A stretch of DNA of 64,000 nt from an uncultured Candidatus Peribacteria bacterium. Lineage in GTDB: Bacteria > Patescibacteriota > Gracilibacteria > UBA1369. The notes beneath the pieces are model-generated. The model was not told where the DNA came from. It worked only from the letters and a program-made list of their open reading frames with translations, and searched no databases. Location of the stretch: NCBI GenBank assembly GCA_964571725.1, contig CAZNDB010000001.1, forward strand, positions 322,544 to 386,543, written 5' to 3'. Made by a program: the position numbers and the translations under genes. How positions within the stretch are numbered: the stretch's first letter is position 1; every line of letters begins with the position of its first letter. Below are positions 4,340 to 38,492 of this stretch, in pieces.

Positions 4340-4960
4340 ATGTCGCTGCTTCAATTCAAAATGATCGTCAATAAAAACAGCATAGCCAAACCGATGCCCA
4401 AACAAAAGTTAAAAATTATTATTCTGATTAATTTTACCTGGAGTATTCTGGGCTTTTACGCGGACTATCAGTGGCTGTCCATGGTGCCAACGCATCTTAT
4501 CCCTCTAACTGCCATTTGTTCACTGTATCCGCCGCTTTTAACTATCTGGTACCTGCTCAAATATTTTGATCGCAAAACGCCTGAGTGGTTTACCTACTGG
4601 CTGGTTTTGGGTACAGCCAGCTATTGGCTGGCCGCCCAGTTTTATTTTCCTCTGCTGATGTCCTGGAAGGGGATTAATTTCCATGATATCGGCTCGATGT
4701 TCTGGGTGTCGGTCTATGGCTGCCAGTCGCTTTTATTAATAAAATATCTAAAAAAGCCCTCGCTGAAGACCATACTGCCCGGATCGCTGTATATTTTGGC
4801 CGCGGATTTTACTCAATATTTCGCCCTGACTTTCGTGGACTTTACTATGGAAGGCTATCCCGTCTGGATGAAATATCTGACCGCGCTGGTCGCGATAGGC
4901 CTGCAAATAATTTGTTCAGTCTGGATTTACTTTCGCACTAGAAACAGCCAAATCCTTTGA
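4340..4960 (+). CDS. polytopic integral membrane protein (possibly DUF1405-like)
   Basis: ORF 4313-4960 has about 5-6 hydrophobic helices. The start is uncertain: the ATG at 4340 lies 1 nt from the divergent nth start, and alternative ATGs occur at 4361 and 4394. Confidence 0.5.
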   Translation: MSLLQFKMIVNKNSIAKPMPKQKLKIIILINFTWSILGFYADYQWLSMVPTHLIPLTAICSLYPPLLTIWYLLKYFDRKTPEWFTYWLVLGTASYWLAAQFYFPLLMSWKGINFHDIGSMFWVSVYGCQSLLLIKYLKKPSLKTILPGSLYILAADFTQYFALTFVDFTMEGYPVWMKYLTALVAIGLQIICSVWIYFRTRNSQIL

Positions 4961-6460
4961 ATTATTTCTGATCTTCGGGCGTAGCGGCATTCTGCGGATT
5001 TTGCTTTGGTCGCCCAGAGCTTTGGAAACATATTTTTCGGGCAACGAAGCGAAGTCGACGAAAGCCAGGTTCAGATAGTTCAAAGGATCCTCGTATGAAC
5101 CGTCTTTGATTATTTCAAAATGCAAATGAGCACCGGTTGTATATACTCCCGCGCCTTTGGAGCCGGGAATTCCTCCGCTCAAACCGATAATATCCCCCTG
5201 ACTCAACATATCGCCCTCGTTGACCAGTATTTTGGAGATATGGCCGTATAAAGTCATAAAGCCGCCGGCGTGGGCTACCATCACATAGCTGTAACCAAAA
5301 CCGTTATCCACTGCCTTGTAGACAATCCCTTCCGCCGCGACTTTAACCGGCGTCTCCTGGGCCGCCCTGACATCCACGGCATTGTGCTGCATGCCGAACA
5401 GTCGGGCATAGGACGCCTCATGATAATAAGCCGTAATTCCGCGAACCGGATTGACCGGCCAGGCCGGTGAAAATTCCGCCCCCTCCAACCCGTAAGTCAG
5501 ATATTCCAGCAGCTTTTTATTATTTCCCACGTTGAGCAGGCTGGCATAGTCTTCGGGATTAAATTTGTCTCCCAATTCCTTGATCCTGTCCTGCACGTAA
5601 ATCAGATTTTTGCGCAGGGTGTCGATTTCCAGTAACACGTCTTCCTGCTGGGCCTTGGATCTGGCCAACAACTGTCTGTATATTTCCTCCTCACCCCTGG
5701 TTTGTTCGATCAGAGATTCTTTGGCCTTTTTCTTGAATTCCAGGTCGTTTTTTTCTTCCGTCAGTTTCTGGTGAAACTGAATCAGGGTAAACTTTTTGAT
5801 TTCCAGTATTTTTTGATTGGTTTCCTGCTCTTCTATCAGCTCTCCCAGCTTCTCGAAAATGGTTCTGCCCTGTTCTTCCAGTACTTCGCTGTATCTGATT
5901 GAACGCAGTTTTTCACTGGTAGTTTCGTCGCTTAACAGCAGTTTGAGCGTGTTTAAATCGGCCCCCTCCTTGCCCAGAGTGTTAAATTCGGCCTGATCCC
6001 TGAAAATCACCTTCAGATACTCCGCTATCATCTGTTTTTGAAAGGAAATTTCAATTTTCTTTTGTTCTATCTGGTATTGCATGGTTTCAATCTCACTCTC
6101 TTTCAGATCTATTTGCGCCTCGACATTGGCAATAATTTTCTGGGAGGCTTTGATTTGTCTGTCCAGATTATCCAGTTGTTGCTGCAGCGTATCGATTTTC
6201 TCCAAAGTGCTGTCAATCTGTCCTTCGGTTTCCTCAATCTGTCTGTTTACGGACAGCAAATCGCTTTCCCCCGAACTGATTTCCAGCTTGATTCTTTCCA
6301 GAAAGCGGCTGGTCTTATATTGTTTGATCAACTCATCGGGATTGGGTGCTGGGTCCTGTTGCTGGGCAGCCAGAAAACCGTCTTTCAGGGGCAGAAAGAT
6401 AATCAGCGCGGCAGTCAGCAGCAAGACCAGTTTTTGTCTGAAGAGGGCTTTCAAATTCAA
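4916..6460 (-). CDS. coiled-coil M23 family metallopeptidase (EnvC-like)
   Basis: 514 aa. Has an N-terminal hydrophobic anchor, a long coiled coil, and a C-terminal M23 signature (HNAVDV..., GAHLHFEI). TTG start. The 3-prime end overlaps the convergent 4340-4960 gene by 45 nt. Confidence 0.85.
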   Translation of the reverse strand: MNLKALFRQKLVLLLTAALIIFLPLKDGFLAAQQQDPAPNPDELIKQYKTSRFLERIKLEISSGESDLLSVNRQIEETEGQIDSTLEKIDTLQQQLDNLDRQIKASQKIIANVEAQIDLKESEIETMQYQIEQKKIEISFQKQMIAEYLKVIFRDQAEFNTLGKEGADLNTLKLLLSDETTSEKLRSIRYSEVLEEQGRTIFEKLGELIEEQETNQKILEIKKFTLIQFHQKLTEEKNDLEFKKKAKESLIEQTRGEEEIYRQLLARSKAQQEDVLLEIDTLRKNLIYVQDRIKELGDKFNPEDYASLLNVGNNKKLLEYLTYGLEGAEFSPAWPVNPVRGITAYYHEASYARLFGMQHNAVDVRAAQETPVKVAAEGIVYKAVDNGFGYSYVMVAHAGGFMTLYGHISKILVNEGDMLSQGDIIGLSGGIPGSKGAGVYTTGAHLHFEIIKDGSYEDPLNYLNLAFVDFASLPEKYVSKALGDQSKIRRMPLRPKIRNNSKDLAVSSAKVNPD

Positions 6461-6930: not shown

Positions 6931-7605
6931 TTGTCAGATTTAGAGTCGTTTTCGGCGTTTGAATCTTCCAATCAGGGTTCTTCCCCGGAGAGTTTCAGGC
7001 TGTTCCAGGAGAGAATGAAAGCCGCCGCCGCGCAAATCCAGGCCATCCGGGCGGGGGAACAGAAACAGAAGAAAAAAGAGGACGAACTGGCTAAAATTCT
7101 CAGTGAATTTATCAAATCCCTGCAGCAGGACTCGGAATATGCCGGGTTTATTGAACATATCAGTAAATTATTGGCGTTAAATCTGCCCGCGGCCTTTATT
7201 TTGGTACTAATAATTAATAATTTTCCCCATCTGGAAGAACGAACCGGCCTCAAGCTGCTGAGTTTTGAGGAAGCTTCCCGGGCGGGTATTCTGGAAAGCC
7301 CGACCTTGCCCGATATCTATATGGCCGAAAAGACTTTGCCCGTCGGCCTCAAGGCTGCCATCGACGCCTGGATTCAGGAAATATCCCGGGTGTCTCTCGA
7401 TCATCGTCAGCGGATGCTGGAAAGGGGACTGGATCGCGCCGGGAAAGTATTACCGGAAACTGTTGATTTGATGGCCTTCAGTCTGGCCTTCTATCTGGGG
7501 AAGAACGGCCATCCGCTTGATCAGGAATTTGCCGAAACATTCTGCCGGTTCTGCCTGAACGGGATTATGGAGCAGGTCAAAAAGCCCTTTAAGGCCCTGG
7601 AATAA
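6931..7605 (+). CDS. hypothetical protein
   Basis: 224-aa ORF with a TTG start 2 nt after the rpmA stop; an internal ATG is also possible. No recognisable domain. Confidence 0.5.
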   Translation: MSDLESFSAFESSNQGSSPESFRLFQERMKAAAAQIQAIRAGEQKQKKKEDELAKILSEFIKSLQQDSEYAGFIEHISKLLALNLPAAFILVLIINNFPHLEERTGLKLLSFEEASRAGILESPTLPDIYMAEKTLPVGLKAAIDAWIQEISRVSLDHRQRMLERGLDRAGKVLPETVDLMAFSLAFYLGKNGHPLDQEFAETFCRFCLNGIMEQVKKPFKALE

Positions 7606-7623: not shown

Positions 7624-8085
7624 ATGAAACTTTATCTGATTCAGCACGGACTCGCCAACACGGAGGAAATTGATCCCGAAAAAAAACTCTCTCCCCAGGG
7701 GCAGACCGACGTGCAAAAAATAGCCCGGTTTATGCAAAATAACCGGATCGATCCCGGCGTAATCTGGCACAGCGGGAAAGCGCGCGCCGAACAGACCGCC
7801 CAAATCATTGCCGGAGTCTGCCAGCCGGCCCAGCCCGCCACCTCCATAGCCGGACTGCAGCCGCAGGACTCACCCCTGGACATAGTCCCTTTTCTAAAGG
7901 TGGAAAGCGGAGACATCGTTTTGGTCGGGCACCTGCCCCATCTGAACAAATTGGCGACCTTTTTGCTGTCGAATCAGGAGGACGGCGACACCATCGCTTT
8001 CCGCGAAGGAAGCGTTCTGTGCCTGGAAAAAACCGACCAGATTTGGAGAGTGAACTGGATGGTCACGCCTGATTTGCTGATTTAA
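7624..8085 (+). CDS. SixA-like histidine phosphatase family protein (QHG variant of the RHG motif)
   Basis: 153 aa. Collinear with E. coli SixA as I recall it (MKLYLIQHG..., [12 protein letters not shown]). The catalytic-motif Arg is replaced by Gln. Confidence 0.7.
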
Positions 8086-8422: not shown

Positions 8423-8448
8423 AGGCCACTTGAACTTGCAAGTGGCCT
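8423..8448 (-). terminator. rho-independent terminator downstream of 8541-9470
   Basis: Perfect 10-bp stem AGGCCACTTG/CAAGTGGCCT with a 6-nt loop, followed on the minus strand by the T-rich run GTTGATTATTCTTTTC. Confidence 0.5.
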
Positions 8449-8540: not shown

Positions 8541-9470
8541 TTATATCTGAATTACTTCGAAAGCAGAAGTAATTATATCACCAGTATAAGAATAAGCAAG
8601 AAATTTTTCGAGATTAAATCCGATGATTGTAGAATCGTAATTTCTGGCGGTAAAAAGACTAAAGTCCTTATTCTCATCATTGCTGAATTCCTGTCCGGAG
8701 AAAACCATATCACGCATGAATATATACTTTTTTTCCAGAGCTTCATTTCCTGCCATAATTGTCCGGAAGTTTTCGCCGTGCAGTACATAAAAATTATAAG
8801 TTTCGGCAAAATCTTCAAAGGGGTCGGTCATGGCATAGCCGGTCACAAAGTCCTCCTCTTTGGCTGATTTTTTGATAGTTGATGCATTTAGGAAACTGAT
8901 TCTGTAAAAGCCCAGACTGGGATCATCCTGATAGATACTGCTCTTGCCGTCTTTGAATTCACTTTCCTTGACCCAAAAATTTCCGTTCATGACTCCCGTA
9001 TCCTGAATATGGCCCAATTCATGGACCAATACCGAAACCAGTTCCCCGTCACTAACGTTTTGGCAGCGCAGAATAATAGTTGACCCGCCTCCCAGCCCCC
9101 GACTGCCCTCCGGGCTGAAATATAAAGTCAGGTTCTTGATCTGTTTGGTGGTCTGCTCCGGCATGGCCTGGAGTGTCTTGTAAACCAGTGATGCACATTT
9201 GTTCTTTTCATAAGGATTATCCACACTGTCTTGGTCGTAATCCTGTCCCGGGTGCAGAGTAATCCCCAGGTCCGTGAGCCGTTTCAGATAATCCTGCTCT
9301 TCGATTTGAGAGTAGAGATCTGAAGTTAATTGAATGTTTTGGGCAACCGGACGGCTGTCATAACCGTTTTCAGTAAAGGCCTGTCCCGCCTCCAGAATTT
9401 CAGTTCCGAAATTCAGGCCGAAGATTGTCTGTATCCCGATAATAAAGGCAAAAAGATAAGTTCTTAGCAT
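8541..9470 (-). CDS. secreted or anchored gluzincin-type zinc metallopeptidase-like protein (HExxH plus downstream E-x-FAE)
   Basis: 309 aa. Has an N-terminal hydrophobic signal/anchor (LFAFIIGIQTIFGL), HELGH in VLVHELGHIQD, and DPFEDFAETYNFY about 75 aa downstream. Confidence 0.7.
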   Translation of the reverse strand: MLRTYLFAFIIGIQTIFGLNFGTEILEAGQAFTENGYDSRPVAQNIQLTSDLYSQIEEQDYLKRLTDLGITLHPGQDYDQDSVDNPYEKNKCASLVYKTLQAMPEQTTKQIKNLTLYFSPEGSRGLGGGSTIILRCQNVSDGELVSVLVHELGHIQDTGVMNGNFWVKESEFKDGKSSIYQDDPSLGFYRISFLNASTIKKSAKEEDFVTGYAMTDPFEDFAETYNFYVLHGENFRTIMAGNEALEKKYIFMRDMVFSGQEFSNDENKDFSLFTARNYDSTIIGFNLEKFLAYSYTGDIITSAFEVIQI

Positions 9471-9588: not shown

Positions 9589-11199
9589 CTATTTTTTAAA
9601 TCTGACCAGGTATTTCAGAGTGCCTGTGCTTGAAACAAAAACGGTGCCGTGTGGCTCGCACTTGCCTTCCACCTTGCTTTTATCCACTTTTTCCTTCTCA
9701 ATCAGAAATCTCTCCGCGTCATCAATGCAGGCCAATAGTGTTTGATTCAGGGCTTTATCGTCTCCCTGCACATTATTCATTTGTTTCCCGACAATCATAT
9801 AGATGTAGCCATCAGTGGCCGCCCGGTATTTCAGATTATATCTGGCTTCCAGCTGCCCTCCGGCATTGGTATCGATGTAATTTTTGGCAATAGACTGATC
9901 TGCGCGCAGCAGACGATCCTTGATTGCGTCATTTACATCCTTTTCATCCTGTACAATTTCGCCGAATTTGGTGGCAAAAGCTTTCAATTCGTCCGGAGTA
10001 GCCTCATGTCCGAACCATTTTTTGTATTTTTCCGCCATCCAGAGAGCGGGGGCGCTGGAGGTCAGATAGTTATAACCGCGTTTGAACGAATCGCTGATTC
10101 CCTCGGTTACGCGGGAAGTCAGGCTTTCTTTCATTTTTATGTCCGTATCGTTGGACATTTCTATGATGGCGACCTGGCTGAAACTGATCGGGGGCTGATA
10201 TTTCTCATATTTCTTGAGATTGTCGGCCGGTCCGTATTTTTTCATGAAAATCTCAAAAGCGGCATAGGCCTCGTTTTTGGGCATCTTCATTCCGGGCACA
10301 TCGATAGCGCCTTGTCCTGCAGAGTATTGGGTCAACAGTACATTGAAGGGCGTATCTCCCATCTGTACAAAAGCCTTGGTCATCAGTTCTGCGCCTTTTT
10401 CATCTGTTCTGTAGGCCTCCATCAGAAATTTGCTGCCTCTGGGGCTTCCTTCGGTTGTGCCGGTGGCAAAGTCTACAAAACTTTCACCGGAAAACAGATA
10501 CCATACTTTATTGAACAACCAGGCTCCGCCTGCGACTTTCAGACCGGTCATCAACGTTTCCTTGATGGTTTTCATGATACCTTCCTCATTGGAGGATTTG
10601 AACATCCAGATTCCGCCCAACAGAGCCATGCCGGCCATGGCCAGCTTCTGTCCGGTGGATAATTTGTCCCAGTTTTCCCTGGCGTCTCCCAGCTTGTCCT
10701 GAATGGAGTCCATCACGCCCTGGGGTTTGGTAAAGATTGTTTTGCGGGCCTCTGCCGAAGCTTTGCTGACATTCAGAAAGCGGCTGGCCTGGGTTTTGAT
10801 CAGGTCATAAAATTCCCAAGCTGCTACTACCTTTTCCGCTTCACTGGCTTTCATGCTGGTGGGCGGAGTTTTCAGGTTTTCCAATGTGGAAAGCACCACG
10901 GCCTTGTCTCTTTCCATCAATTCCAGCTGGCCGTAGGTCTGTAATATCTTCCTGGCTTCAGTCAGTTTGCCGTTAATCATCTTTTCTGTAGCAGTTTTTC
11001 CTTCGGCAGTCAGATTGATGGCCGTATCCAGCTTAAATCCGTCTGCTCCGATCACGCCCGGTCTTTGCAGAAATTCCAGCACCCTTCTGTCATTCAGAGT
11101 CTGTTTATCGGGGGAAACCTCATTGTTAGAATCCTTGATGTCCCTTGCTCTCAGCGCGTCCAGACTTGTAGGTAACACCTCTTGATTTGATGGAGCCAT
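9589..11199 (-). CDS. hypothetical 536-aa protein with central hydrophobic hairpin
   Basis: Long ORF of native composition. No signal peptide. Two moderately hydrophobic segments (LAMAGMALLGGIWMF and GLKVAGGAWLFNKVWYLF) lie about 22 aa apart. Confidence 0.7.
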   Translation of the reverse strand: MAPSNQEVLPTSLDALRARDIKDSNNEVSPDKQTLNDRRVLEFLQRPGVIGADGFKLDTAINLTAEGKTATEKMINGKLTEARKILQTYGQLELMERDKAVVLSTLENLKTPPTSMKASEAEKVVAAWEFYDLIKTQASRFLNVSKASAEARKTIFTKPQGVMDSIQDKLGDARENWDKLSTGQKLAMAGMALLGGIWMFKSSNEEGIMKTIKETLMTGLKVAGGAWLFNKVWYLFSGESFVDFATGTTEGSPRGSKFLMEAYRTDEKGAELMTKAFVQMGDTPFNVLLTQYSAGQGAIDVPGMKMPKNEAYAAFEIFMKKYGPADNLKKYEKYQPPISFSQVAIIEMSNDTDIKMKESLTSRVTEGISDSFKRGYNYLTSSAPALWMAEKYKKWFGHEATPDELKAFATKFGEIVQDEKDVNDAIKDRLLRADQSIAKNYIDTNAGGQLEARYNLKYRAATDGYIYMIVGKQMNNVQGDDKALNQTLLACIDDAERFLIEKEKVDKSKVEGKCEPHGTVFVSSTGTLKYLVRFKK

Positions 11200-13820: not shown

Positions 13821-16800
13821 TCAGTTTTTACGCAGCAGTTTGAGCCAGGCCAATACGGTTTTGGCAGTGCTTAACATAGTCGTTACCTCCTTGATTTTAC
13901 CGCTTCTGAGCATTTCACTGATTTTTTGTAATGAATCGGATTTGTTTAAAGCTTCCAGCAGATCAACCGGCTGGTTATTGGAAATGGCCAGGGAAAGAGC
14001 GGCCCTCTTCTTATTCTTCTTGGGCAGCAATTCTTTTCCCGCATAAGTTAAAGTAAACAGGAAGGTTAACACATCGGGATATTGATTTATCAATTTGATA
14101 AAATTGACGTATTTTTTGCTGTCGCTCAATTTAAGTTCGCCGAAAAAGTGCAGTATCAGATTGGTCACCATGCTGTCCGCCCCAATTAGCGCTCCCAGAT
14201 TTTCCAGAGCCCGCTTTTCCAGTTCCTCAAATTTAGTAGCTTCGGCCTGATCTTTGCTCAAAATAACTATTTCAGTGGCCGGAGTAAGCGCGGGTGCGGA
14301 AGTAAGAGCTGGAACAGAAGTAGGCGCAGGTGCGGGAGTGGGGGCGGTAGCGGCTGTCGGGGCAGGTGCAGGGGCGGCGGGAGCGGGAGTGGATTCCGGA
14401 GCCGGAGTGGAGGCGGGGGAAGGTGCAGGTGTAGGTGAGGGTGTAGGGGAGGCAGCAGGTGCGGCCGTCGTGGTTGCGATGCGCCTTTTATGCCATTCTT
14501 CAGGAATTTCCATCAGTCCGACTCCGTAAGATTCCATTTCCGTAAGAATATCCGCCAGGGGACGGGCATCGGCAGATAAAAATTTGTAATAAAATTCAAT
14601 GAACTCTGCAATCTGATCGCTTCTTGGCTCAAGACTTTCCCTGTTCAGTAAATTCAGATTGGTAGCAAGATTTAACATGAAATCATAGAGACGTGTCGAG
14701 AAAAAAGCATCAAAATCTTCTATTGTGGAAATGTTAAACACAGACATCAGGTACTTGGCAATCGGTCTGAAATCGGCTGTAGCATTTACGAAAACGCCTT
14801 GCAGCCAAAGATTTATATTTTCAGACAAAATATCAAATCTTTCAATTTCCTCGGAAGCAAGGCCTCCTATGTGCAGATTGTTTTCCAGGTCCAGATAGGC
14901 TGTGGAGCGCAACTCTGGTAATTCGCCGGGCAGTCCCGCGCCAAAGTCAACATTGGCAAATTGAATCTTATTTTTATACCAATAAACTTGTCCGCCATTA
15001 TCTCTGGTATGTCCGTGTATCACTCTGTGAATTCCCAGGTCAGCCAGCTTGTCCAATTGGGCTGTTATGGCCGGATCGGTCAATGATTTCTGGAAATTTC
15101 TGTTTTTGGGGTGCAGAAACATTCTGCAAAGCTCGGTAAAACGGGGATATCCAGTCATTTGTTTTTGCTCTAGTAAAAGAGCTTTCAGCGTATCAGAAAA
15201 TTCCCGGTTTAGTCCGGCAATTGTATCGTCAAGATTAGGGCCACGGGTCAATTCAGTCAGAATATCCGGGGTGAGTTCCGTGTGTATAAACATAGTGTCC
15301 CCATCTCGGGAAAGCAGTTTCATTTTACAGATTTCCTCCAGTAGTTTCTTTCCTTCAACGTCTGCAAGCATATTCTGTCTGACCTCTTTCCCCAAGGCCA
15401 GAAACTTATCCGTATCGCTGTTAAAATTTTTGTCAATATCCTGTTTAATCTCTTCCATAACATCACCCTTGAAGGATTGGCCATACTGTGTATAACGAGC
15501 TATAAATTCTGTAATGCCGAGTCCCTGCCAAGAGTTGATCATCGCGTTGCCCCAGCTGTGTCTGGCAGCCAATAGATCTCCCTCGCCGGCCATCAGACGA
15601 TCTGTCAGAAAAGCAACTGCCAGGTCTTCGTGGTTGCCAAAATGCGAAACAATTACCCCGTTCTGTTCTGCTGCGGCCTGCCTCAATTCCGTTAACGTGG
15701 TCAATATATCCAGGCCATTGGTTAGTCTGTCGCCGATATTGTCACCGATCAGAATCAATTTTCTGTTGCCGGCAATCCATGACCAGGTCTGATCCGGGTG
15801 GATTTCAATTATTTTCAGAGTTACAAGATTGTTGATAAAAGCCTCATAGCTGCCGTTTAAGTCTCCAATTATTAGTACCTCAGTATGTCTTGGTACCTCA
15901 TGGGCTTCCAGTACAGTCGGCGGGGGAAGTGTACTGATTGTGGTTTGTAATACTGGTGCCGGAGCAGGTCCGGGCGCAGACGGGGGTGCAGCGGGAGGTG
16001 CCGGGGGAGTTACTGGTGCGGGTGCCGGAGCGGGAGTAGGAGCCGTAGCAGGTGCAGGCGCAGACGGCGGTGCAGCGGGAGGTGCCGGGGGAGTTACTGG
16101 TGCGGGTGCCGGAGCGGGAGCAGGTGCGGGCGCTGGTGCAGGCGCAGACGGCGGTGCGGCGGGAGGTGCCGGGGGAGTTACTGGTGCGGGTGCCGGAGCG
16201 GGAGCAGGTGCGGGCGCTGGTGCAGGTGCAGACGGCGGTGCGGCGGGAGGTGCCGGGGGAGTTACTGGTGTGGGTGCAGGAGCGGGAGCAGGTGCGGGCG
16301 CAGGAGTTGGAGCAGGAGCAGGTGCTGGCGGCGTCGGGAATTGCGTAAGCGGGGGCAGTGTGAATTTCGGAATTAAGGGGGATTCATCGTCAGGCAAACG
16401 TCTGCTTTTCAGAAGCTCAAGTTTTTTCTGAACTTTTTTCAGTTCTTCACGTGCCGCATTCAGTTTGGGGTTAACAGATACCAGGGATGGTTCTATACCC
16501 ATAGTGCCCAACTCTTTATTTAAAATTTCCACCAGCCGTCCCTCCAGACCGTGATCTGCTTCATACTGCAGTACTTTTTCACGCAGTTTAAGATAAGTCT
16601 CACTAATCGCGGTGACATGTGACTTATAAGCCTCTTGTCCCATCCTGTTCACCTTTGGCAAGCGTGCCTGCCAGCTTCTTATCAACGTTACGTGATCTCC
16701 GAATTCCAGCCAGAATAGTCGTTCAGCCTCCGGAATGGACATTTTTTTGACGGATTTTTCTTTCTTATCGATTTCTCTAACTTCTTCCTGAAAAGTTGCT

Positions 16801-18227
16801 TTTTGTTTCTCCGCTTCTTCTTTTGTTTTCTTCAATTGTGCGGTTCGTTCTGCTATTGCCTCCAAAGCCGAGGCACCAAGTGCCTGAATATGGGATAACC
16901 TTTGTTCCAGCCTGGTTTGCCTGTCTCTGAATTCCGCATAGGTGGTGGTATTGGCTACATAGGAAGACAGCGCGTTCTGATTCCCCTCGACGCTGACTGT
17001 GTCGGGAGCCAGCTGCCGTGCCTTGACCAATATATATAATTCCAATTCAATCAAATCCTTTTCAATACTGGTTTGCAGATTGAAGGCATGAAAATATTTG
17101 CCGTCGTCCCGCTGCCCGTAAATAATTTCTCCTCCCACGACCGAGTCGAGTGACTGTAACAAGGTGGAATTGATTCTGCCGTTCTGTACGTCCTGTTCCA
17201 ATTGAGCTATTTCTTCTGCTTTTTGAAAATCGTTGACCCAGTCCTCGGACTCCCTGATTTTTGACACGATCGCCGCCAGTTTTTTACTAATGTCTTTTTT
17301 GACGGTCTCATTTGTTCCCAAGGCCGTAGAAAGCTTCTTCAGCGTTTCTTCCAGTTGTGCGATTCCGGCCAATAAAGTAGGTTTTTTGCGGCGGCTGGAT
17401 TCCAGATCGGCTTTATCTTTGGTGATTTTTTCAGCGGCTTTTACACCTGCCGAGGGATTATCGGCTTCTCTTTTGGATGGTAAATCGTAGGCTTTAGCCG
17501 ACCCCAATCTCAGCACCCGTCCAATTTTATGCATAAAGCCCTTGGTGGCCCGTCCGACTTTCCCGTCCCCCAAATCTTTGGCAACATCAGGGTTGACTGT
17601 CTTGGCGGGCATTAATCTGGCGAACTTATCGGAACTCTGTTCCGGTCCCTGCTGGTTGGGCATTAACTTGGCGAAAGCATCAGGCCCCGTTTGGAGAGAC
17701 ATACCCGAACTGGTGAGTTTAGCTTGCGCGGCAACTTCCTCCGTTTGAGTTGTTTTGATGGTCAGAACTCTGTTCAAGACGGATTGCTTGATCGTGTCCA
17801 ACAGGGCATCGTCAACGCCTGTTATACTCTGTTTGATGGTTTCCTCAATATCATTGTTTGCGTACAAATATTCTTTTACCGACTCATCAATTGCTTCGTG
17901 AATAAGATATTCGTTTGCAACATTGGTTAAATGCGCTTTGTCCAAAAGACTGTTTTTCTCTAGATTTTTTCTAATTAAAACGGAAAGTTCCCCGGCCAGA
18001 TGACGATCGGGATAAACGGCAAATATTAAATCCGCCAGTTTGGCTTCATCCAAAATAGCCAGTCTATCGGCCAACACACTGCTCTTCAGTTTGCCAATAT
18101 CCAACGGAAGCTTTTGAGCCAGATCAATTGCATAATCATGGGCGAAAGCATTTTGAAAAGCATCCAGATTCGGATCATCCGAGTCGGTATATTTTTCAGC
18201 TCCATATGTATTGGGACCGCTGACCAT
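13821..18227 (-). CDS. giant 1468-aa protein with a PPP/calcineurin-like metallophosphoesterase core flanked by Pro/Ala-rich linkers
   Basis: The motifs occur in canonical order: GDLNGS (a GDxHG variant), GDNIGDR, GNHE, and later VIHGHTRD. PAPAP/VTPPAPPAAPPSA repeats lie N-terminal of the core and a TP/AP-rich linker lies C-terminal. No signal peptide. Confidence 0.8.
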   Translation of the reverse strand: MVSGPNTYGAEKYTDSDDPNLDAFQNAFAHDYAIDLAQKLPLDIGKLKSSVLADRLAILDEAKLADLIFAVYPDRHLAGELSVLIRKNLEKNSLLDKAHLTNVANEYLIHEAIDESVKEYLYANNDIEETIKQSITGVDDALLDTIKQSVLNRVLTIKTTQTEEVAAQAKLTSSGMSLQTGPDAFAKLMPNQQGPEQSSDKFARLMPAKTVNPDVAKDLGDGKVGRATKGFMHKIGRVLRLGSAKAYDLPSKREADNPSAGVKAAEKITKDKADLESSRRKKPTLLAGIAQLEETLKKLSTALGTNETVKKDISKKLAAIVSKIRESEDWVNDFQKAEEIAQLEQDVQNGRINSTLLQSLDSVVGGEIIYGQRDDGKYFHAFNLQTSIEKDLIELELYILVKARQLAPDTVSVEGNQNALSSYVANTTTYAEFRDRQTRLEQRLSHIQALGASALEAIAERTAQLKKTKEEAEKQKATFQEEVREIDKKEKSVKKMSIPEAERLFWLEFGDHVTLIRSWQARLPKVNRMGQEAYKSHVTAISETYLKLREKVLQYEADHGLEGRLVEILNKELGTMGIEPSLVSVNPKLNAAREELKKVQKKLELLKSRRLPDDESPLIPKFTLPPLTQFPTPPAPAPAPTPAPAPAPAPAPTPVTPPAPPAAPPSAPAPAPAPAPAPAPAPVTPPAPPAAPPSAPAPAPAPAPAPAPAPVTPPAPPAAPPSAPAPATAPTPAPAPAPVTPPAPPAAPPSAPGPAPAPVLQTTISTLPPPTVLEAHEVPRHTEVLIIGDLNGSYEAFINNLVTLKIIEIHPDQTWSWIAGNRKLILIGDNIGDRLTNGLDILTTLTELRQAAAEQNGVIVSHFGNHEDLAVAFLTDRLMAGEGDLLAARHSWGNAMINSWQGLGITEFIARYTQYGQSFKGDVMEEIKQDIDKNFNSDTDKFLALGKEVRQNMLADVEGKKLLEEICKMKLLSRDGDTMFIHTELTPDILTELTRGPNLDDTIAGLNREFSDTLKALLLEQKQMTGYPRFTELCRMFLHPKNRNFQKSLTDPAITAQLDKLADLGIHRVIHGHTRDNGGQVYWYKNKIQFANVDFGAGLPGELPELRSTAYLDLENNLHIGGLASEEIERFDILSENINLWLQGVFVNATADFRPIAKYLMSVFNISTIEDFDAFFSTRLYDFMLNLATNLNLLNRESLEPRSDQIAEFIEFYYKFLSADARPLADILTEMESYGVGLMEIPEEWHKRRIATTTAAPAASPTPSPTPAPSPASTPAPESTPAPAAPAPAPTAATAPTPAPAPTSVPALTSAPALTPATEIVILSKDQAEATKFEELEKRALENLGALIGADSMVTNLILHFFGELKLSDSKKYVNFIKLINQYPDVLTFLFTLTYAGKELLPKKNKKRAALSLAISNNQPVDLLEALNKSDSLQKISEMLRSGKIKEVTTMLSTAKTVLAWLKLLRKN
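15976..16311 (-). repeat. four tandem 84-bp (28-aa) coding repeats, GC-rich, inside 13821-18227
   Basis: The unit starting GCAGACGGCGGTGC recurs at 15976, 16060, 16144 and 16228, an exact 84-nt period. It encodes VTPPAPPAAPPSAPAPAPAPAPAPAPAP. Confidence 0.85.
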
Positions 18228-18611
18228 TTAATTGGTTTTATTGACTGAATTTAACTTTTCATCAATGCTTCTGGAATTCTCAACCAGTTCATCAAACAAG
18301 TCGCTTACCGCCTCTAAAATCTTATTATCAAGTCCGGGAATATAAGAGGTGATTATACTTAAAGCATCTATTTCGTCAAGTTCGGGGTGGTCCTCCAGTG
18401 TTTTCTGCAACAGAAAGACTTCCTTTTCTCCCAGTGAGGCTACGACTACGGCTGTCACGCGCTCACTTAAAGTCTGGGCAATTTCGTTACTCAGCTCTTC
18501 AATAACCTCAGGACTGGCCTTATCCATTTTGATTTCTTTCAGCAGCATCTGAATGAAATTTTCAGTGTTGAAATAAATTCCGTTTCTTCTGGTTGATTGT
18601 GTTTTTTTCAT
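18228..18611 (-). CDS. small acidic hypothetical protein (127 aa), translationally coupled to the 1468-aa gene
   Basis: Its stop TAA (18230-18228) abuts the ATG at 18227. It starts 9 nt after the stop of the 1072-aa gene. Rich in Asp/Glu, with no TM segment. Confidence 0.65.
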   Translation of the reverse strand: MKKTQSTRRNGIYFNTENFIQMLLKEIKMDKASPEVIEELSNEIAQTLSERVTAVVVASLGEKEVFLLQKTLEDHPELDEIDALSIITSYIPGLDNKILEAVSDLFDELVENSRSIDEKLNSVNKTN

Positions 18612-18620
18612 ATTGGTTAA

Positions 18621-21600
18621 TTAAGCTGCTTTGGAAATAACTTCTCCGTTGTCATTGGCTGCCTCGCTGTATAAAGCTATCGGTCCCAGATTCAATTGTT
18701 TCTCTGCGGCGATCTTTCTGTATTCATTGGCGGCTCCGTTTAATTCATAGATTTGTTCTTCTATACTGTTGATCTTTCTGGCGGCACGTTTTTTATCCCA
18801 GCTGTAAGGCATTCCCGAGATTTTGGCCTGCAGGCGTTTTTGTCTGGCGACCAGCTTATCGATGCGTTTTTCGTACTCGAGAATTCTGTCTTTGAGGTAA
18901 CTTCTCATGAAGTTTCGGTTGAATTGGCCAAGTAAACGTTTGGGCATATGCGTGGTGCGTACCATGGCCCTGCCGATCAATCTCACCGGGAAAGTGCCGT
19001 ATTTCCAGGCAAAGCCCAGTGGAGCGGTAACGGGAGTGGCAATCATTCGGCCGACACTGAAAGACTTCTTGGCCAGGCTTCTGGCCGTGGCGGCATTCAA
19101 AAACTTCTTGCGGCTCCAATTCCAGGAGGTTTTGGTTCCGGACCAGAACGCCTTGGCTCCCTGTTTTGTGTAATGCCAGCCCTTTTGTAATCTGAAATTG
19201 GTGGACATTTTGTTAAACACCTGGGTAAGTCCTACCGATTGCAGATATTCGCGTTTCTCCCTTCTGCTCAAATTGTTTTCATCAATATACTTTTTGGCGG
19301 CCTCCACTCTTTCGTATAAATCTTTGGATTGGGCAATTTGTTTATCCACTGTGGAAATTTCATCGCGCAGATTTTGGACTTCCCTGGTCAGTCTCAGCCG
19401 GTTAGGGTCGGCTTCCGGCAGAGCGTTCATTTCGGTTTCCATTTTGGAAATGCGCGCGCGTTTTTCTTCGATGCCGGCAGTTTTTAGTTTGTTCAGCCCT
19501 TCCAGTGACTTTTTGTTTAAAATTCTCTTTAAATCATTTTTGACCAGCAGCACCCGCCACATGGCATCGGGATTTTTCACGTCTTTGGTCAGGGATTCCT
19601 CAACTTGCCGTTCTTGCGTACGGCTTTCGCGAAGCATTTTTACCAGAACTTTTTCTCTTTCACCCGGCTCAGCGGTCTGGTTCACTTTATCCAGAAATTC
19701 TCGTGACCACATCTCAATCTTAACTTTTTTCAGTACTTCAATCAGGTTTTCCAGATCCCAGTCGTCCGGGTCCAGCCCTTTCTCCAGACTGGGTTTCACT
19801 TTTTTAAATCGGGAAACTGCTTCTTCCAATATCAGGGAAAACCTTTCCAGCGTTTCACGTTTCACCACCCGTCCGGATTTATTGAGAGTATGTTTCAGAC
19901 GTCGGGGCGTGGTGAACTTATTGATCCCGTTGAAAACGCTGAAGGTTTCATCGGAATTAATTACTGACTGCAGCAACTTGTCAGAAGTCATATTGGCAAA
20001 ATCAATCGGTTCCAGTCCGATAAAGTCCTGTCCGCTGGCCACGGCATTTTTGACTCTATTCCAGCCGCGTCCCAGCACGCCTCGGTCCATAATTTCCGCT
20101 CCCTGCTGGTTGGCCGTTCGCTTGATATCGATACTCTTTACTTTCTCCAGCCTCAGCGCGGCCTTAACGTTTGCATAATGGTTGGCTTCCTCGTTGTATA
20201 CTGTTTCGTCCAACTTATGCTTGCGCATGTAATCCTTGCGCATAAAACGCTGTGTCAGCTCAAAGGGTGTGAGCTTGGCTGGATTGACTGAGGGTTTGAT
20301 ATCGTCAATAGCAACTTTTATAGTCTTAAAACCCTCGTGCAACTTGTCAACAGCGTCATGATCATTGAAGTCGAATGGTCCAAGAACAGTTTCAAGAGTT
20401 TTATAAGAGGGTGCTGTCAGGTCAATGAGCTTGGGATGTAAGGAAAGCAAATCCTTTAATCCATCAACAGAGGCTCTTAGGCTTTTTACATTTTTTGCCA
20501 TTTGTGGTTCAAGCACATTCAACCTTTCATTTTCGGCTTTCTTTTTGTCGTCAGGAGAGGAAGTACCGCTTCCTTCGATAACCAGTAATTCTGCCCTTCT
20601 TTGTACAAAAGCTGACTGTTCCGCGATGGCCTGGCGAATGGTTTGAATAATTTTGTTGGTTTCCGCTTTCAAATGCTCAATAGCCTGGGCCTCGGCCGCG
20701 TCAACGGCCCCAGGAAGAGTTTCGTTTTTGATAAAAGTATCAATTTCAGCGGTAACTTGTTTTGCCGCAGCATTGAGGTCCGGAGCTTCTCCCGTGGCAA
20801 TCAAAAAATAAAGCCTGCCGCGCAATTCCGCCATAAACATTGTGGTTTCCTGACTTGTTTGAAGCTGATACAGGGAGTTATCCTCCAAAGCGGCTTTCAC
20901 TTGGTCTGCCAGGGCTTTACATTCAGGACTGCCCGTAACCAGCATATTCCAGAACTCTCTTAACGGTTGATGATTGTAGACCTCGGCCGAACCGGCTTCG
21001 TCACCGCTTTCCTGGTCAGAATTTGCAACCAGCAACAAGTCCAGGAAGGCCCGTTCTTCGCTTAAAGGCTCGGGTGGGTTTGCCTTTCTGCACCATTTAC
21101 GCAGATTTCTCAATTCTGAGAGTGTAAGCTGGGACAATCTGTTTGTGGCATCCGCGATGGGGGCACCTGCAATCAATCCGATACGAGCCATTATTTCGTC
21201 ATAACGTGTGGGATTGGTACTTTGAATTAAAGTTAACGGCTCCGTCAGTCTGTTGGCCACAAACAGTCTTTGTGCCTCCAGGCTGGGGTTCTTGCCAAAT
21301 CTTTTGTTTATCTGGGCTTCAATATAGGGGCTGGTGCCAATCATTGAGCCAACACCGCGCAGAACTCGTACAAACTGCCTGCCCACCCTTCTGGGAAGGG
21401 GGCTTTCCATGTGTTCCACTCCCTCCGAACCCTGATAATGCAATGAGTCCTCACCTAATTCGGTTTCATAATTTTCGTTACCCTGTACTGCGCGGTACAA
21501 TTTATTTCGTACCCTTTCCTCACCTAATTCGGTTTCGTAATTTTCGTTACCCTGTACTGCGCGGTACAATTTATTTCGTACCCTTTCCTCCTTGATCCTG

Positions 21601-21839
21601 TTTAATTCGGGGCTGCCTCCGCCTGCCGGCAGGGGACGGCCTCGGGTCAGCGCGTGGGCAACCTGTTCATTTATGCCGGTTTGTATCAGTGAAACATTGC
21701 GGGCGATTTGGGCGTTAAATTCATAAAATTCCCGGTTTTCGTCCTCCACCTGTCGCAATACGCGTTCATTTCTTTCTTCCTGGTCGGAAAGATTGGGTTG
21801 TTCCTGTGGCAAATGCCCAAAGCGGGGTACCTTTGACAT
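18621..21839 (-). CDS. hypothetical 1072-aa coiled-coil-rich protein
   Basis: Long ORF of native composition. No signal peptide. Contains an internal exact 23-aa duplication near the N-terminus. First gene of the 1072/127/1468 operon. Confidence 0.7.
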   Translation of the reverse strand: MSKVPRFGHLPQEQPNLSDQEERNERVLRQVEDENREFYEFNAQIARNVSLIQTGINEQVAHALTRGRPLPAGGGSPELNRIKEERVRNKLYRAVQGNENYETELGEERVRNKLYRAVQGNENYETELGEDSLHYQGSEGVEHMESPLPRRVGRQFVRVLRGVGSMIGTSPYIEAQINKRFGKNPSLEAQRLFVANRLTEPLTLIQSTNPTRYDEIMARIGLIAGAPIADATNRLSQLTLSELRNLRKWCRKANPPEPLSEERAFLDLLLVANSDQESGDEAGSAEVYNHQPLREFWNMLVTGSPECKALADQVKAALEDNSLYQLQTSQETTMFMAELRGRLYFLIATGEAPDLNAAAKQVTAEIDTFIKNETLPGAVDAAEAQAIEHLKAETNKIIQTIRQAIAEQSAFVQRRAELLVIEGSGTSSPDDKKKAENERLNVLEPQMAKNVKSLRASVDGLKDLLSLHPKLIDLTAPSYKTLETVLGPFDFNDHDAVDKLHEGFKTIKVAIDDIKPSVNPAKLTPFELTQRFMRKDYMRKHKLDETVYNEEANHYANVKAALRLEKVKSIDIKRTANQQGAEIMDRGVLGRGWNRVKNAVASGQDFIGLEPIDFANMTSDKLLQSVINSDETFSVFNGINKFTTPRRLKHTLNKSGRVVKRETLERFSLILEEAVSRFKKVKPSLEKGLDPDDWDLENLIEVLKKVKIEMWSREFLDKVNQTAEPGEREKVLVKMLRESRTQERQVEESLTKDVKNPDAMWRVLLVKNDLKRILNKKSLEGLNKLKTAGIEEKRARISKMETEMNALPEADPNRLRLTREVQNLRDEISTVDKQIAQSKDLYERVEAAKKYIDENNLSRREKREYLQSVGLTQVFNKMSTNFRLQKGWHYTKQGAKAFWSGTKTSWNWSRKKFLNAATARSLAKKSFSVGRMIATPVTAPLGFAWKYGTFPVRLIGRAMVRTTHMPKRLLGQFNRNFMRSYLKDRILEYEKRIDKLVARQKRLQAKISGMPYSWDKKRAARKINSIEEQIYELNGAANEYRKIAAEKQLNLGPIALYSEAANDNGEVISKAA
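21451..21588 (-). repeat. 2 x 69-bp tandem duplication (1 mismatch) within 18621-21839
   Basis: TCACCTAATTCGGTTTC(A/G)TAATTTTCGTTACCCTGTACTGCGCGGTACAATTTATTTCGTACCCTTTCC occurs at 21451-21519 and 21520-21588. It encodes EERVRNKLYRAVQGNENYETELG twice. Confidence 0.9.
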
Positions 21840-21959: not shown

Positions 21960-23231
21960 ATGAAAATTACATCAGAGAAAATGGCTAAGGCAGAAGTAAA
22001 GCTGATTGTGGAACTGACGGAACTGGAAATGGAGAATTATTATCAGAAAGCCCTGGAAAAGCTGGCATCACAAATTAACGTAAAAGGTTTTCGTCCCGGC
22101 AAAGTGCCCCATGAAGTGGCCGAACAGCAATTGGAAAAAGGTTATATCATGGCCCATGCCATAGACCTTGCCATTCCCCCTACCTACATTGAATCCGTTA
22201 AACAGGAGAAAATTGAGCCGATCGCCCAGCCCAAAGTAACCATCGTCAACGACAAGCCCCTTAAATATGAGGCGATCATTCCGGTTTATCCCGAAGTCAA
22301 AGTAAAGGATTACAAGAAAATCAAGCTGGAGGGGAAAAAAGTTGAGGTTACCGACGCGATGGTGGAGGAAGAAGTAAAACATTTGATTGGCTATCACGCC
22401 ACATTCAGTGAAGTGACGGATCGTCCGGCCGCCATGGGGGACAGGGTGGAAATTGATTTTAACGGTTTTGACGAAACAGGGGTGCCTTTGGAAGGTACCA
22501 CCAGCAAGAATCACCCGATGATACTGGGTGAAAAGACCTTTGTCCCGGGATTCGAGGAAAATTTGGAAGGAATGAAAATAGGGGATGAAAAAGAATTTAC
22601 CGTCACTTTTCCCGCGGATTATTTTCACAAACCTTTTCAGAGCAAACCGGTCAAGTTCAAGGTCAAGCTTAACAGGCTGGAAGAAAGACATGTTCCCGAA
22701 CTGAACGCCGAGTTTATTAAAAAAGTTGCGGGGAAGGAAATGACTGAAGCAGAATTTAAAACGGAAGTAAAAAACAACCTGATGAAAGCCCGCGAACAGG
22801 AGGAGCAAAACCGTCTGGAAAGTCTGTTGCTGGAAAAAATTCGCGATAATACCGAAGTTGACCTGGCCGAGAGCCTGGTGGACGAAGAAATCCATTATCT
22901 GCTTGATGAAATCAAAGAGAATGCCACCAGCAGGGGCATTAACTGGGAGGATTATCTGAAGGCTACCGGTAAAACCGAACAGCAGTTGCATGAGGAGAAA
23001 AAGGGCGACGCCGAGAAAAGATTAAAGCTCCGCTTTGGGGTACAGGAGATTTTTAAGCTGGAAAAAATTGACGCTACCGACGAAGACCTGGACAAAGCTT
23101 TCCAGGACGAAATGAAAATACTTGCGTCCATGAATTATGAGCCTAAAATAGAGGAGCAGGAGATGCTCAAGGTCCGCCTGAAAAATAAAATTAAACTGGA
23201 AAAACTGATCGCGGTTTTCCTCAAACAATAA
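21960..23231 (+). CDS. tig: trigger factor
   Basis: 423 aa. Has the N-terminal ribosome-binding motif region (VKGFRPGKVP), a central FKBP-like segment, and typical length. Confidence 0.9.
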   Translation: MKITSEKMAKAEVKLIVELTELEMENYYQKALEKLASQINVKGFRPGKVPHEVAEQQLEKGYIMAHAIDLAIPPTYIESVKQEKIEPIAQPKVTIVNDKPLKYEAIIPVYPEVKVKDYKKIKLEGKKVEVTDAMVEEEVKHLIGYHATFSEVTDRPAAMGDRVEIDFNGFDETGVPLEGTTSKNHPMILGEKTFVPGFEENLEGMKIGDEKEFTVTFPADYFHKPFQSKPVKFKVKLNRLEERHVPELNAEFIKKVAGKEMTEAEFKTEVKNNLMKAREQEEQNRLESLLLEKIRDNTEVDLAESLVDEEIHYLLDEIKENATSRGINWEDYLKATGKTEQQLHEEKKGDAEKRLKLRFGVQEIFKLEKIDATDEDLDKAFQDEMKILASMNYEPKIEEQEMLKVRLKNKIKLEKLIAVFLKQ

Positions 23232-38300: not shown

Positions 38301-38492
38301 ATGGAACAAGCAAGTGCTGCAAATCAATCAAATCAAATTAAAAGAGAACTGGAGTTTTTCGGTGAAAAAGTCCTGATAGTGATGGAAGCCGACGGAAGTT
38401 ATTCCGTTTATGCTGACGGAAAAGAAATTGAATTTCTTCCCTGGGCTTTGGAGAAACAAAAATCAATGAAATCAGCGTCTGACCATGAATAA
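38301..38492 (+). CDS. hypothetical small protein (63 aa)
   Basis: ORF whose stop overlaps the ATG of the 988-aa gene (ATGAATAAA). Confidence 0.45.
   Translation: MEQASAANQSNQIKRELEFFGEKVLIVMEADGSYSVYADGKEIEFLPWALEKQKSMKSASDHE

Follow-up and report, generated by a model that had tools for sequence, protein, structure and literature searches.

A predicted Shewanella-like PPP-type phosphatase domain with an altered first metal-site motif in a giant protein of a Peribacteria operon

The DNA considered here, a 64,000-nucleotide stretch of an uncultured Candidatus Peribacteria bacterium (assembly GCA_964571725.1, contig CAZNDB010000001.1, positions 322,544 to 386,543; hereafter the window), carries on its minus strand a gene for a giant modular protein that lies within a cluster of six genes. 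From end to end the protein is laid out as a long helical region, a Pro/Ala linker, a domain bearing the motifs of metallophosphatases, an extension of that domain, a second low-complexity linker and a basic C-terminal tail. Table 1 gives their positions together with those of the catalytic motifs and of the neighboring genes. The chief object of this analysis is the domain in the middle, its kinship and the unusual residue in its first motif, and the question of what such a domain may be doing in the company in which it is found. A preliminary description, drawn from the sequence alone, had proposed a PPP-like metallophosphoesterase core for this protein, and that proposal serves as a point of reference below.

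Table 1. Features of the giant phosphatase gene and its neighbors (window coordinates; conservation counts refer to the domain alignment described in the text; HSPs, high-scoring segment pairs; pI, isoelectric point)
Feature	Position	Strand	Basis or remark
Whole gene, 1468-aa modular protein	13821..18227, stop codon included	-	Open reading frame list; ATG start
N-terminal region, residues 1-611, all-helical, no recognizable domain	16395..18227	-	AlphaFold2
Pro/Ala linker, residues 625-757, 133 aa (65 Pro, 46 Ala)	15957..16355	-	Translation and composition
Shewanella-like/PPP-type metallophosphatase domain, residues 773-1113	14889..15911	-	Family HMM, AlphaFold, Foldseek
Motif I, GDLNG, residues 788-792 (GDLNGS from 788)	15852..15866	-	D789 130/130; N791 in the place of the canonical metal-ligand His
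Motif II, GDNIGDR, residues 828-834	15726..15746	-	Bridging Asp829 130/130, Asp833 127/130, Arg834 127/130
Motif III, GNHE, residues 864-867	15627..15638	-	Asn865, metal ligand, 128/130; His866, presumed general acid, 129/130
Motif IV, IHTEL, residues 981-985	15273..15287	-	H982 128/130; aligns to the His of MHGG in 1V73
Asn1042-Arg1043	15099..15104	-	R1043 127/130
Motif V, HGHT, residues 1071-1074 (VIHGHT from 1069)	15006..15017	-	H1073 114/120 ungapped; aligns to VGHT of 1V73
VDFG, residues 1093-1096, bacterial-PPP (I/L/V)D(S/T)G motif	14940..14951	-	D1094 98/106 ungapped
C-terminal extension of the domain, residues 1114-1250 (137 aa)	14478..14888	-	Common to giant orthologues only
Second low-complexity T/P/A/S linker, residues 1252-1316, 65 aa (21 Pro, 20 Ala, 13 Thr, 7 Ser)	14280..14474	-	Translation and composition
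C-terminal module, residues 1317-1468, basic amphipathic tail, kept in orthologues	13824..14279	-	
tig, divergent	21960-23231	+	67-76% identity to orthologues
First cluster gene, 1072-aa basic protein, pI 9.4	18621..21839	-	40-48% identity, L001/L002/L011
127-aa acidic protein, pI 4.55, most conserved cluster gene	18228..18611	-	61-74% full-length identity; 68-75% in BLAST HSPs
788-aa protein, one predicted transmembrane helix (438-457), Pro-rich segment	11337..13703	-	Hydropathy; partial orthology
536-aa protein, conserved hydrophobic hairpin ~190-245	9589..11199	-	48-59% identity to orthologues
309-aa protein, signal-like N-terminus MLRTYLFAFIIGIQTIFG, last cluster gene	8541..9470	-	51-62% identity to orthologues
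Strongest minus-strand terminator-like hairpin, just 3' of the 309-aa gene	8423..8448	-	10-bp stem, 6 G-C pairs, T-rich tail; consensus scan only

Direct database searches are nearly silent on this domain. Neither the whole protein nor the excised core matches the Pfam Metallophos model PF00149, even at E=1 to 10, and the only relevant Pfam match of the core is to WipA_Phos over residues 826-904, where the score is 11.8 bits (E=0.16) and the cutoff 27 bits. Searching Pfam, NCBIfam and the PDB (phmmer) with the core as a single sequence returned nothing useful. Word-index homology searches found no relatives for either the full protein, whose Pro/Ala repeats probably swamp the index, or the core, and returned seven proteins only when an alignment (A1) served as the query. 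A phmmer search with residues 765-1250, run exhaustively over 1.84 billion cluster representatives (clusters at 50% identity), yielded 290 related proteins at E≤1e-3, of which 167 reach E≤1e-10 and 28 reach E≤1e-30, the best match of the core standing at E=1.8e-83. A hidden Markov model (HMM) of 117 family members, from which the window protein and its 12 nearest relatives had been removed, still matches residues 773-1113 with 274.5 bits (E=1.1e-76, scaled to 1.84 billion sequences); the motifs are therefore no chance pattern, and chance matching as their explanation was rejected. The tie to the superfamily passes through the relatives, of which 30 of 36 in one set and 17 of 53 in another match PF00149. 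The closest of them, P0001 (47% identity, with the same GDLNG), does so at 22.0 bits, against a cutoff of 21.5 bits. By these comparisons, the failure of the window protein in Pfam reads as divergence only, and its superfamily link as transitive but strong.

The same family alignment leads to known structures. A 36-member family profile matched, among PDB entries, the Shewanella cold-active protein-tyrosine phosphatase (1V73/2Z72/2ZBM) at E=2e-22, with weaker matches to 4J6O and to lambda phosphatase, the Rhizobiales-like phosphatase (Rhilph) and ApaH, the last three at E 9e-4 to 1.4e-2. The AlphaFold2 model of the domain computed from these 36 sequences has a predicted local distance difference test score (pLDDT) of 88.7 and a predicted template-modeling score (pTM) of 0.89. 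When the model was compared with the PDB by Foldseek, the Shewanella structures took the top three places, with 2Z72/1V73 first (E=4e-11, TM score ~0.5), followed by RdgC, Rhilph, PP5, WipA/WipB, PP2A and PP1, all at probability 1.0; PPPs made up nearly all of the 50 matches listed, out of 90 PDB matches at E≤1e-3. The moderate TM scores fit two large helical inserts in the domain, one between GNHE and H982 and the other between H982 and GH1073. Judged from the predicted structure, the core has, with next to no doubt, the PPP/metallophosphoesterase fold. The core proposed in the preliminary description thus stands, on the strength of the family profile, the PF00149-matching relatives and the AlphaFold and Foldseek results. 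The Pfam profile check suggested there gave a divided answer, in that a direct search with the window protein finds no match while its relatives and the family profile do align, and the structure prediction suggested alongside produced a model that matches PPP structures at the Foldseek probability given above.

Conservation within the domain was counted over 129 full-length family copies aligned with the window copy, 130 in total. The motifs occur in canonical order (at 788, 828, 864, 982 and 1069), as had been claimed, and of the six metal ligands of the canonical set alignment identifies five, D789, D829, N865, H982 and H1073. Two of these are the C-terminal metal-ligand histidines, the equivalents of H173 and H248 in PP1: aligned to solved relatives, His982 is the counterpart of the histidine in H(A/G)G, and His1073 the predicted metal ligand in the bacterial-PPP Gly-His. 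Also retained are Arg834 and the pair formed by His866 and Asp833, N1007 is kept in 130/130 family domains, and R1043 is a candidate second phosphate-binding arginine that may be equivalent to PP1 Arg221 or WipA Arg369. Motif II has one extra residue and no trailing glycine in comparison with the canonical GDxxDRG, and the form GDIL[GA]DR is found family-wide; in the HMM alignment to 1V73, GDiLaDR is set against GDIF-DRG with a one-residue gap. The sixth ligand is missing in just the way first noticed, the histidine of GDxHG having given way to Asn791. The extent of the core needed more correction: a core is indeed present at the proposed ~770-1060, but the HMM spans residues 773-1113, and the fifth motif of the preliminary description itself sits at 1069.

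Among PPP groups, the window domain, as far as alignment and modeling can tell, most closely resembles the Shelphs, the Shewanella protein-tyrosine phosphatase (PTPase; CAPTPase/PPI; 1V73, 2Z72) and its group, the Shewanella and Colwellia phosphatases, being the best match by both profile and structure. The likeness lies in the order of the motifs, the GH at the last metal-ligand histidine, the VDFG with phenylalanine in third place and the insert after GNHE. Shelphs have been characterized by a glycine before the last histidine, by the bacterial (I/L/V)D(S/T)G motif with valine or phenylalanine third in most members and by an insert after GNHE (Andreeva & Kutuzov, 2004, PMC535813). In the window domain this insert corresponds to the 114 residues between GNHE867 and H982, modeled as helices. 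Conservation of all metal-binding residues is a further mark of Shelphs, and here the domain falls outside, with Asn791 for histidine. Unlike the Shewanella PTPase, moreover, the window protein has GDxxxDR rather than GDxxDRG as motif II besides its motif-I asparagine, and larger helical inserts, of 114 and 90 residues, between motifs. The Shewanella enzyme is a single-domain protein of ~340 aa, whereas the window domain resides inside a 1468-aa protein without a signal peptide, and identity between the two in the structural alignment is ~16%. The other bacterial comparisons, lambda phosphatase, PrpA/PrpB, ApaH and the Rhizobiales-like phosphatase (1G5B, 2DFJ, 5VJV), share with the window domain its catalytic motifs and the GH and D-x-G signatures of bacterial type, but are small single-domain proteins much more distant than the Shewanella enzyme, and ApaH acts on dinucleotides. 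The eukaryotic PPPs (PP1, PP2A, PP5, RdgC) have the same fold and catalytic core (Foldseek probability 1.0, E 1e-6 to 1e-4); unlike them, the window protein has no SAPNY loop and carries C-terminal motifs of bacterial type, at a structural-alignment identity of 10-16%. What the domain represents is no new enzyme class but a kind of enzyme already known.

With 11 orthologues aligned, the phosphatase core is best conserved (0.32-0.47 identity per 40-residue block), residues 481-600 come second (0.31-0.38) and the C-terminal module reaches 0.19-0.26, while the linkers, residues 41-120 and residues 1161-1320 are poorly conserved. The N-terminal 625 residues, modeled by AlphaFold2 with 10 orthologues, are all-helical at a mean pLDDT of 69 and a low overall pTM of 0.42, and contain two long helices, 258-348 (91 residues) and 430-494 (65 residues), in which pLDDT exceeds 90. 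A hidden domain in this part was sought and rejected, for the model is helical throughout and Foldseek against the PDB finds generic coiled-coil arms only, those of MukB, Rad50 and SMC at E>0.01; by the same token, the earlier description of coiled coils beyond the linkers is reasonable for the N-terminal part of the protein. On the other side of the domain, the phmmer matches P0002, P0006, P0013 and P0018 reach query positions 472-485 and hence cover the extension. In the C-terminal module, residues 1376-1468 align by BLASTP to residues 1186-1284 of the L002 orthologue (34% identity, E=1e-9).

The tract of about 130 Pro/Ala-rich residues that had been placed before the core is there, 133 residues in all, and holds four copies of a 28-aa unit, VTPPAPPAAPPSAPAPAPAPAPAPAPAP. 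At the DNA level it is an 84-bp tandem repeat (15955-16304, 4.2 copies, 93% matching), and its length differs among the 11 aligned orthologues. The TP/AP-rich linker said to bound the core on its other side exists as well, at 1252-1316, but it does not abut the core, as the 137-aa extension intervenes. The absence of a signal peptide, also claimed earlier, agrees with a Kyte-Doolittle scan of the whole protein, in which no 19-residue window reaches 1.6 and the N-terminus is hydrophilic; by these signs the protein has neither a signal peptide nor a transmembrane helix. It is within the 84-bp repeat that Logan short-read contigs from this organism break, with small contigs of higher depth spanning the gap. 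The copy number given is for this reason that of the present assembly only, and the length of the linker, uncertain here, may vary from strain to strain. A strain variant in run X2 differs from the window at sites of which 39 are listed, 27/39 synonymous and 12/39 not, and the listed differences inside the phosphatase core are all synonymous. Antisense to the repeat runs a 163-aa Gly/Ala-rich open reading frame (15940-16431, plus strand), almost certainly no gene but an artefact that mirrors the repeat.

The giant gene has constant company. Genes for proteins of 1072 aa, 127 aa, the phosphatase, 788 aa, 536 aa and 309 aa stand in the same order in the window genome and in L001, L002 and L011, where the giant orthologues are 1286-1460 aa long and share about 30% identity with the window protein. 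The 127-aa gene ends in a TAA stop that is followed at once by the start codon of the giant gene (junction TAAATG), and the hairpin beyond the 309-aa gene is likely to be the end of the operon. The 1072-aa, 127-aa, 788-aa and 536-aa proteins drew no match from Pfam, NCBIfam or the PDB. The 309-aa protein has sub-threshold matches to zinc metallopeptidases (Pfam Peptidase_Mx, E=1.9e-5; TIGR04549, E=1.2e-6). An assignment of the 127-aa protein to DUF5663, on a pairwise BLASTP match at E=0.034, was rejected: the hhalign probability is 1.2%, and no orthologue matches DUF5663. Just past the operon, a SixA-type phosphohistidine phosphatase (7624-8085, plus strand; TIGR00249, E=3e-26) adds a second phosphatase adjoining the cluster, next to a gene for a 224-aa protein with one transmembrane helix (6931-7605, plus strand). 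Both genes are syntenic in L002, and that for the 224-aa protein also in L001 and L011.

From the domain, its linkers and the operon partners together, we take the most likely role of the protein to be that of a tethered regulatory phosphatase in a lineage-specific, membrane-associated assembly. The full reading places in the cytoplasm a Shelph-like protein phosphatase that is tethered to a scaffold, is altered at its first metal site and works in such an assembly; we hold it at a probability of roughly 0.6, and its cytoplasmic element rests on the lack of a signal peptide or transmembrane helix. On this reading, the domain would hydrolyze phosphomonoesters on proteins by means of the usual metal-activated water, the substrate class lying among phosphoserine, phosphothreonine and phosphotyrosine, of which the nearest solved relatives prefer phosphotyrosine. 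The domain would hang between two flexible Pro/Ala-rich linkers, which would join it to the long-helix N-terminal module and to the C-terminal module, and these would presumably dock it to partners. Such partners may be found in the operon, apparently conserved in Peribacteria/Gracilibacteria-lineage bacteria belonging to the Candidate Phyla Radiation (CPR), with the giant gene as the third of its six: the putative single-pass membrane protein of 788 aa, the hairpin protein of 536 aa and the 309-aa protein, which would be a secreted zinc-peptidase-like protein. Several observations pull the other way. WipA is inactive as H32A (PMC5454105), and lambda phosphatase H22N, as cited in PMC2364625, shows lower hydrolysis of p-nitrophenyl phosphate and lower affinity for manganese, so that Asn791 could point to an enzyme that is weak or inactive. 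At the motif-I position, some clades of the family have phenylalanine, a residue unable to bind metal, and motif II contains its one-residue insertion. Neither a kinase nor an FHA protein was found in the 64-kb window, one or two family members carry the peptidoglycan-binding domain PG_binding_1, and no RNA run was found with the sequence.

The first of these difficulties can be weighed against the family as a whole. In the motif-I column of the 130 domains, histidine accounts for 63, asparagine for 36, aspartate for 16, serine for six and phenylalanine for five, next to five single others (threonine, tyrosine and alanine included). GDLNG is found in 6/6 of the closest relatives. On a neighbor-joining tree, a rough distance tree without support values, the window protein falls within a nine-member clade that is asparagine-type throughout, whose sisters P0013, P0014 and P0018 are of the histidine type and have the same giant architecture; parsimony on this tree requires at least 12 changes between histidine and other residues, and 23 changes in all. 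The GDxNG form is therefore not unique, being one of several recurrent replacements of a histidine lost at least 12 times. All nine members of the clade retain every other catalytic residue. In the asparagine class at large, 19/36 keep the full set of other catalytic residues, and most of the others differ only at the non-ligand H1071.

Two readings of this pattern compete. The loss of the histidine may have disabled catalysis altogether, leaving a pseudophosphatase, a module kept for binding a phospho-ligand or a protein inside a coiled-coil protein. The WipA and lambda phosphatase mutants lend themselves to this view, as do the drift of the motif-I position to D, S, F, T, Y and A within the family, the non-ligating phenylalanine included, and the position of the window sequence under every Pfam threshold. 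We nevertheless consider it unlikely, for the all-asparagine clade keeps all other catalytic residues, among them the general-acid His866, which mere binding would not need, and histidine-type and asparagine-type orthologues have the same architecture and operon. Moreover, asparagine and aspartate side chains are able to ligate metals. As far as the alignment can inform, Asn791 probably weakens or re-tunes metal binding at the first site rather than killing the enzyme. More broadly, we infer that the first metal site has been re-tuned or weakened in many lineages of the family with the domain still selected as an enzyme.

A further comparison is with the Legionella pneumophila Dot/Icm effectors WipA, WipB and WipC (PF21663; 5N6X, 5Y9O, 5NNY), which have a PPP-like fold with DxH, GDxxDR and GNHE motifs. 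Their coiled-coil or extra-domain grafts are thought to target the enzyme (PMC5454105). Two members of the present family match WipA_Phos, at E down to 1.6e-6. The preliminary description had remarked on a likeness to translocated phosphatase effectors, and the giant protein, too, might be secreted or translocated, an episymbiotic or predatory CPR cell delivering it, for instance by a type IV system and with the 127-aa protein as chaperone, to dephosphorylate proteins of a host bacterium. Besides the related fold, such an effector would fit a large modular protein with variable repeats that evolves fast (30% identity between orthologues vs 76% for trigger factor), and the small acidic protein (pI 4.55) translationally coupled upstream would fit a chaperone. 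The window also encodes a VirD4/TraD-like coupling protein, at 57475-59943. Even so, we regard this possibility as distinctly improbable. WipA and WipB are structural matches at E ~1e-5, ranked below the Shewanella PTPase, RdgC, Rhilph and PP5, and the WipA_Phos match of the window protein is sub-threshold. By structure, it is the Shewanella enzyme that comes closest rather than WipA. WipA has a helical hairpin between motifs I and II, where the window protein has only 40 residues, and, unlike the window protein, it retains the motif-I histidine. The giant protein has no signal peptide and no recognizable secretion signal, the VirD4-like gene is 40 kb off and unlinked, and the operon partners look like resident membrane proteins. 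A bolder scheme, which we would give little credence, has the operon encode a lineage-specific, envelope-associated apparatus of episymbiotic CPR bacteria of the Peribacteria/Gracilibacteria type, with the giant protein as its enzymatic arm, a Shelph/WipA-like phosphatase on flexible Pro/Ala tethers delivered into, or acting at the contact with, a host bacterium and rewiring the phosphosignaling of that host. In it, the 127-aa protein would serve as chaperone or regulator, and the recurrent loss of the histidine would be the sign that the family as a whole has changed over to another metal or to catalysis with a single one.

The tethered protein phosphatase favored here draws further on the wider family. 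The proteins that contain the domain range from 166 to 2923 aa, and most of what flanks it in them is without a Pfam match. Individual members combine it with FHA, Pkinase, FtsK_gamma or a peptidase-like domain. Fusion to FHA and kinase domains is in keeping with protein dephosphorylation; fusion to peptidoglycan-binding domains suggests that some relatives are extracytoplasmic. A metallophosphoesterase acting on something other than protein, either a nucleotide (such as diadenosine tetraphosphate) or a precursor or polymer of the envelope, in an assembly for envelope biogenesis, may also be read from such data, the superfamily being functionally diverse, with ApaH among the profile matches. 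The genes of distant members adjoin those for MurB, a Mur ligase or FtsZ, the peptidoglycan-binding domain is fused to one or two members and FtsK_gamma to one, and the operon partners of the giant gene are membrane or secreted proteins. We find this very unlikely, since the best matches are protein phosphatases (the Shewanella PTPase, RdgC, PP5, WipA/WipB and PP2A), FHA and Pkinase fusions occur in the family, and the changes in ApaH-type motif II differ from those in the window protein. The gene contexts of distant members are also mutually inconsistent: MurB and a Mur ligase in L003, FtsZ in L004, SmpB and FtsH in L005 and L008. A single consistent context for these members was accordingly rejected. 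In the distant CPR contig L004 (525-11456), P0045 (549 aa) lies between unannotated proteins of 815 and 1658 aa, preceded by a 106-aa DUF5663 protein and followed by FtsZ. This order of large, small, phosphatase and large echoes the window operon, and pairwise and profile comparison of the L004 partners with the window partners demonstrated no sequence similarity.

The giant protein had been called an orphan, and a tethered phosphatase inside it unusual for bacteria; neither label finds support. The family defined by its domain counts at least 290 clusters (50% identity), and large multidomain proteins of up to ~2900 aa are common among them. For the whole protein, orthologues stand in syntenic operons of three or more further genomes. 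Close genomic relatives of the domain are confined to two metagenome-assembled genomes, L001 (Candidatus Peribacteria) and L002 (OY782391.1), a 1.34-Mb chromosome labeled Candidatus Gracilibacteria, and to the metagenome contig L011; labeled distant members come from Doudnabacteria and a "Patescibacteria group bacterium". The labeled family members seen so far are all CPR bacteria, a spread that rests on few labeled sequences, and no phage relatives were found in viral contigs. No account of the family turned up in the open-access literature searched. NCBI already labels some relatives "metallophosphoesterase"; what appears to be undescribed is the conserved operon and the family itself, in which motif II carries an insertion and the motif-I position varies. 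CPR/Patescibacteria genomes are rich in very large unannotated proteins, and little is known of their signaling. Here, a sizeable family of at least 290 clusters turns out to hold a Shewanella-like PPP module that standard Pfam searches often miss. The family also amounts to a natural experiment: its histidine has been replaced repeatedly with the rest of the active site fixed, which bears on how much alteration a PPP can take in its first metal site. The conserved operon supplies a defined set of partner proteins.

The organism itself is present in bioreactor and wastewater metagenomes. Some Gracilibacteria read UGA as glycine, a code rejected for the window, where TGA ends 6/34 genes and the standard genetic code hence applies. 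The orthologous operon of L002 likewise consists of long uninterrupted open reading frames under the standard code; although labeled a Gracilibacteria genome, L002 appears to lack UGA as a sense codon, at least in the operon region. Housekeeping genes in the window include pgm, tig, infB, clpB, dnaE, aspS, ruvB, rplS and lexA. Elsewhere, the segment 27700-31900 stands out by a G+C content of 59-65% vs ~47% for the genome. It encodes a 399-aa signal-peptide protein and two lipoprotein-like proteins (LAGCDD, STGCDDGG) with Gly-rich GGTGGSGG and Cys-rich repeats and without Pfam matches, in open reading frames that overlap on both strands, and it looks like either a foreign island from a high-GC Gram-negative bacterium or a chimera of assembly or binning. 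The VirD4/TraD-type matches of the 822-aa protein at 57475-59943 (plus strand) are weak (E=1e-11, far under curated cutoffs); its gene is followed by one for a 3D/PG_binding_1 cell-wall protein (60120-61331), and these may represent part of a system for type IV secretion or DNA transfer, or what is left of one. Two large proteins resemble M23-family peptidoglycan endopeptidases (4916-6460 and 49609-51561, both on the minus strand), the latter also matching a leucine-rich-repeat model, and a 988-aa protein (38485-41451, plus strand) has as its only recognizable part a GDSL-like lipase/acylhydrolase at residues 397-564.

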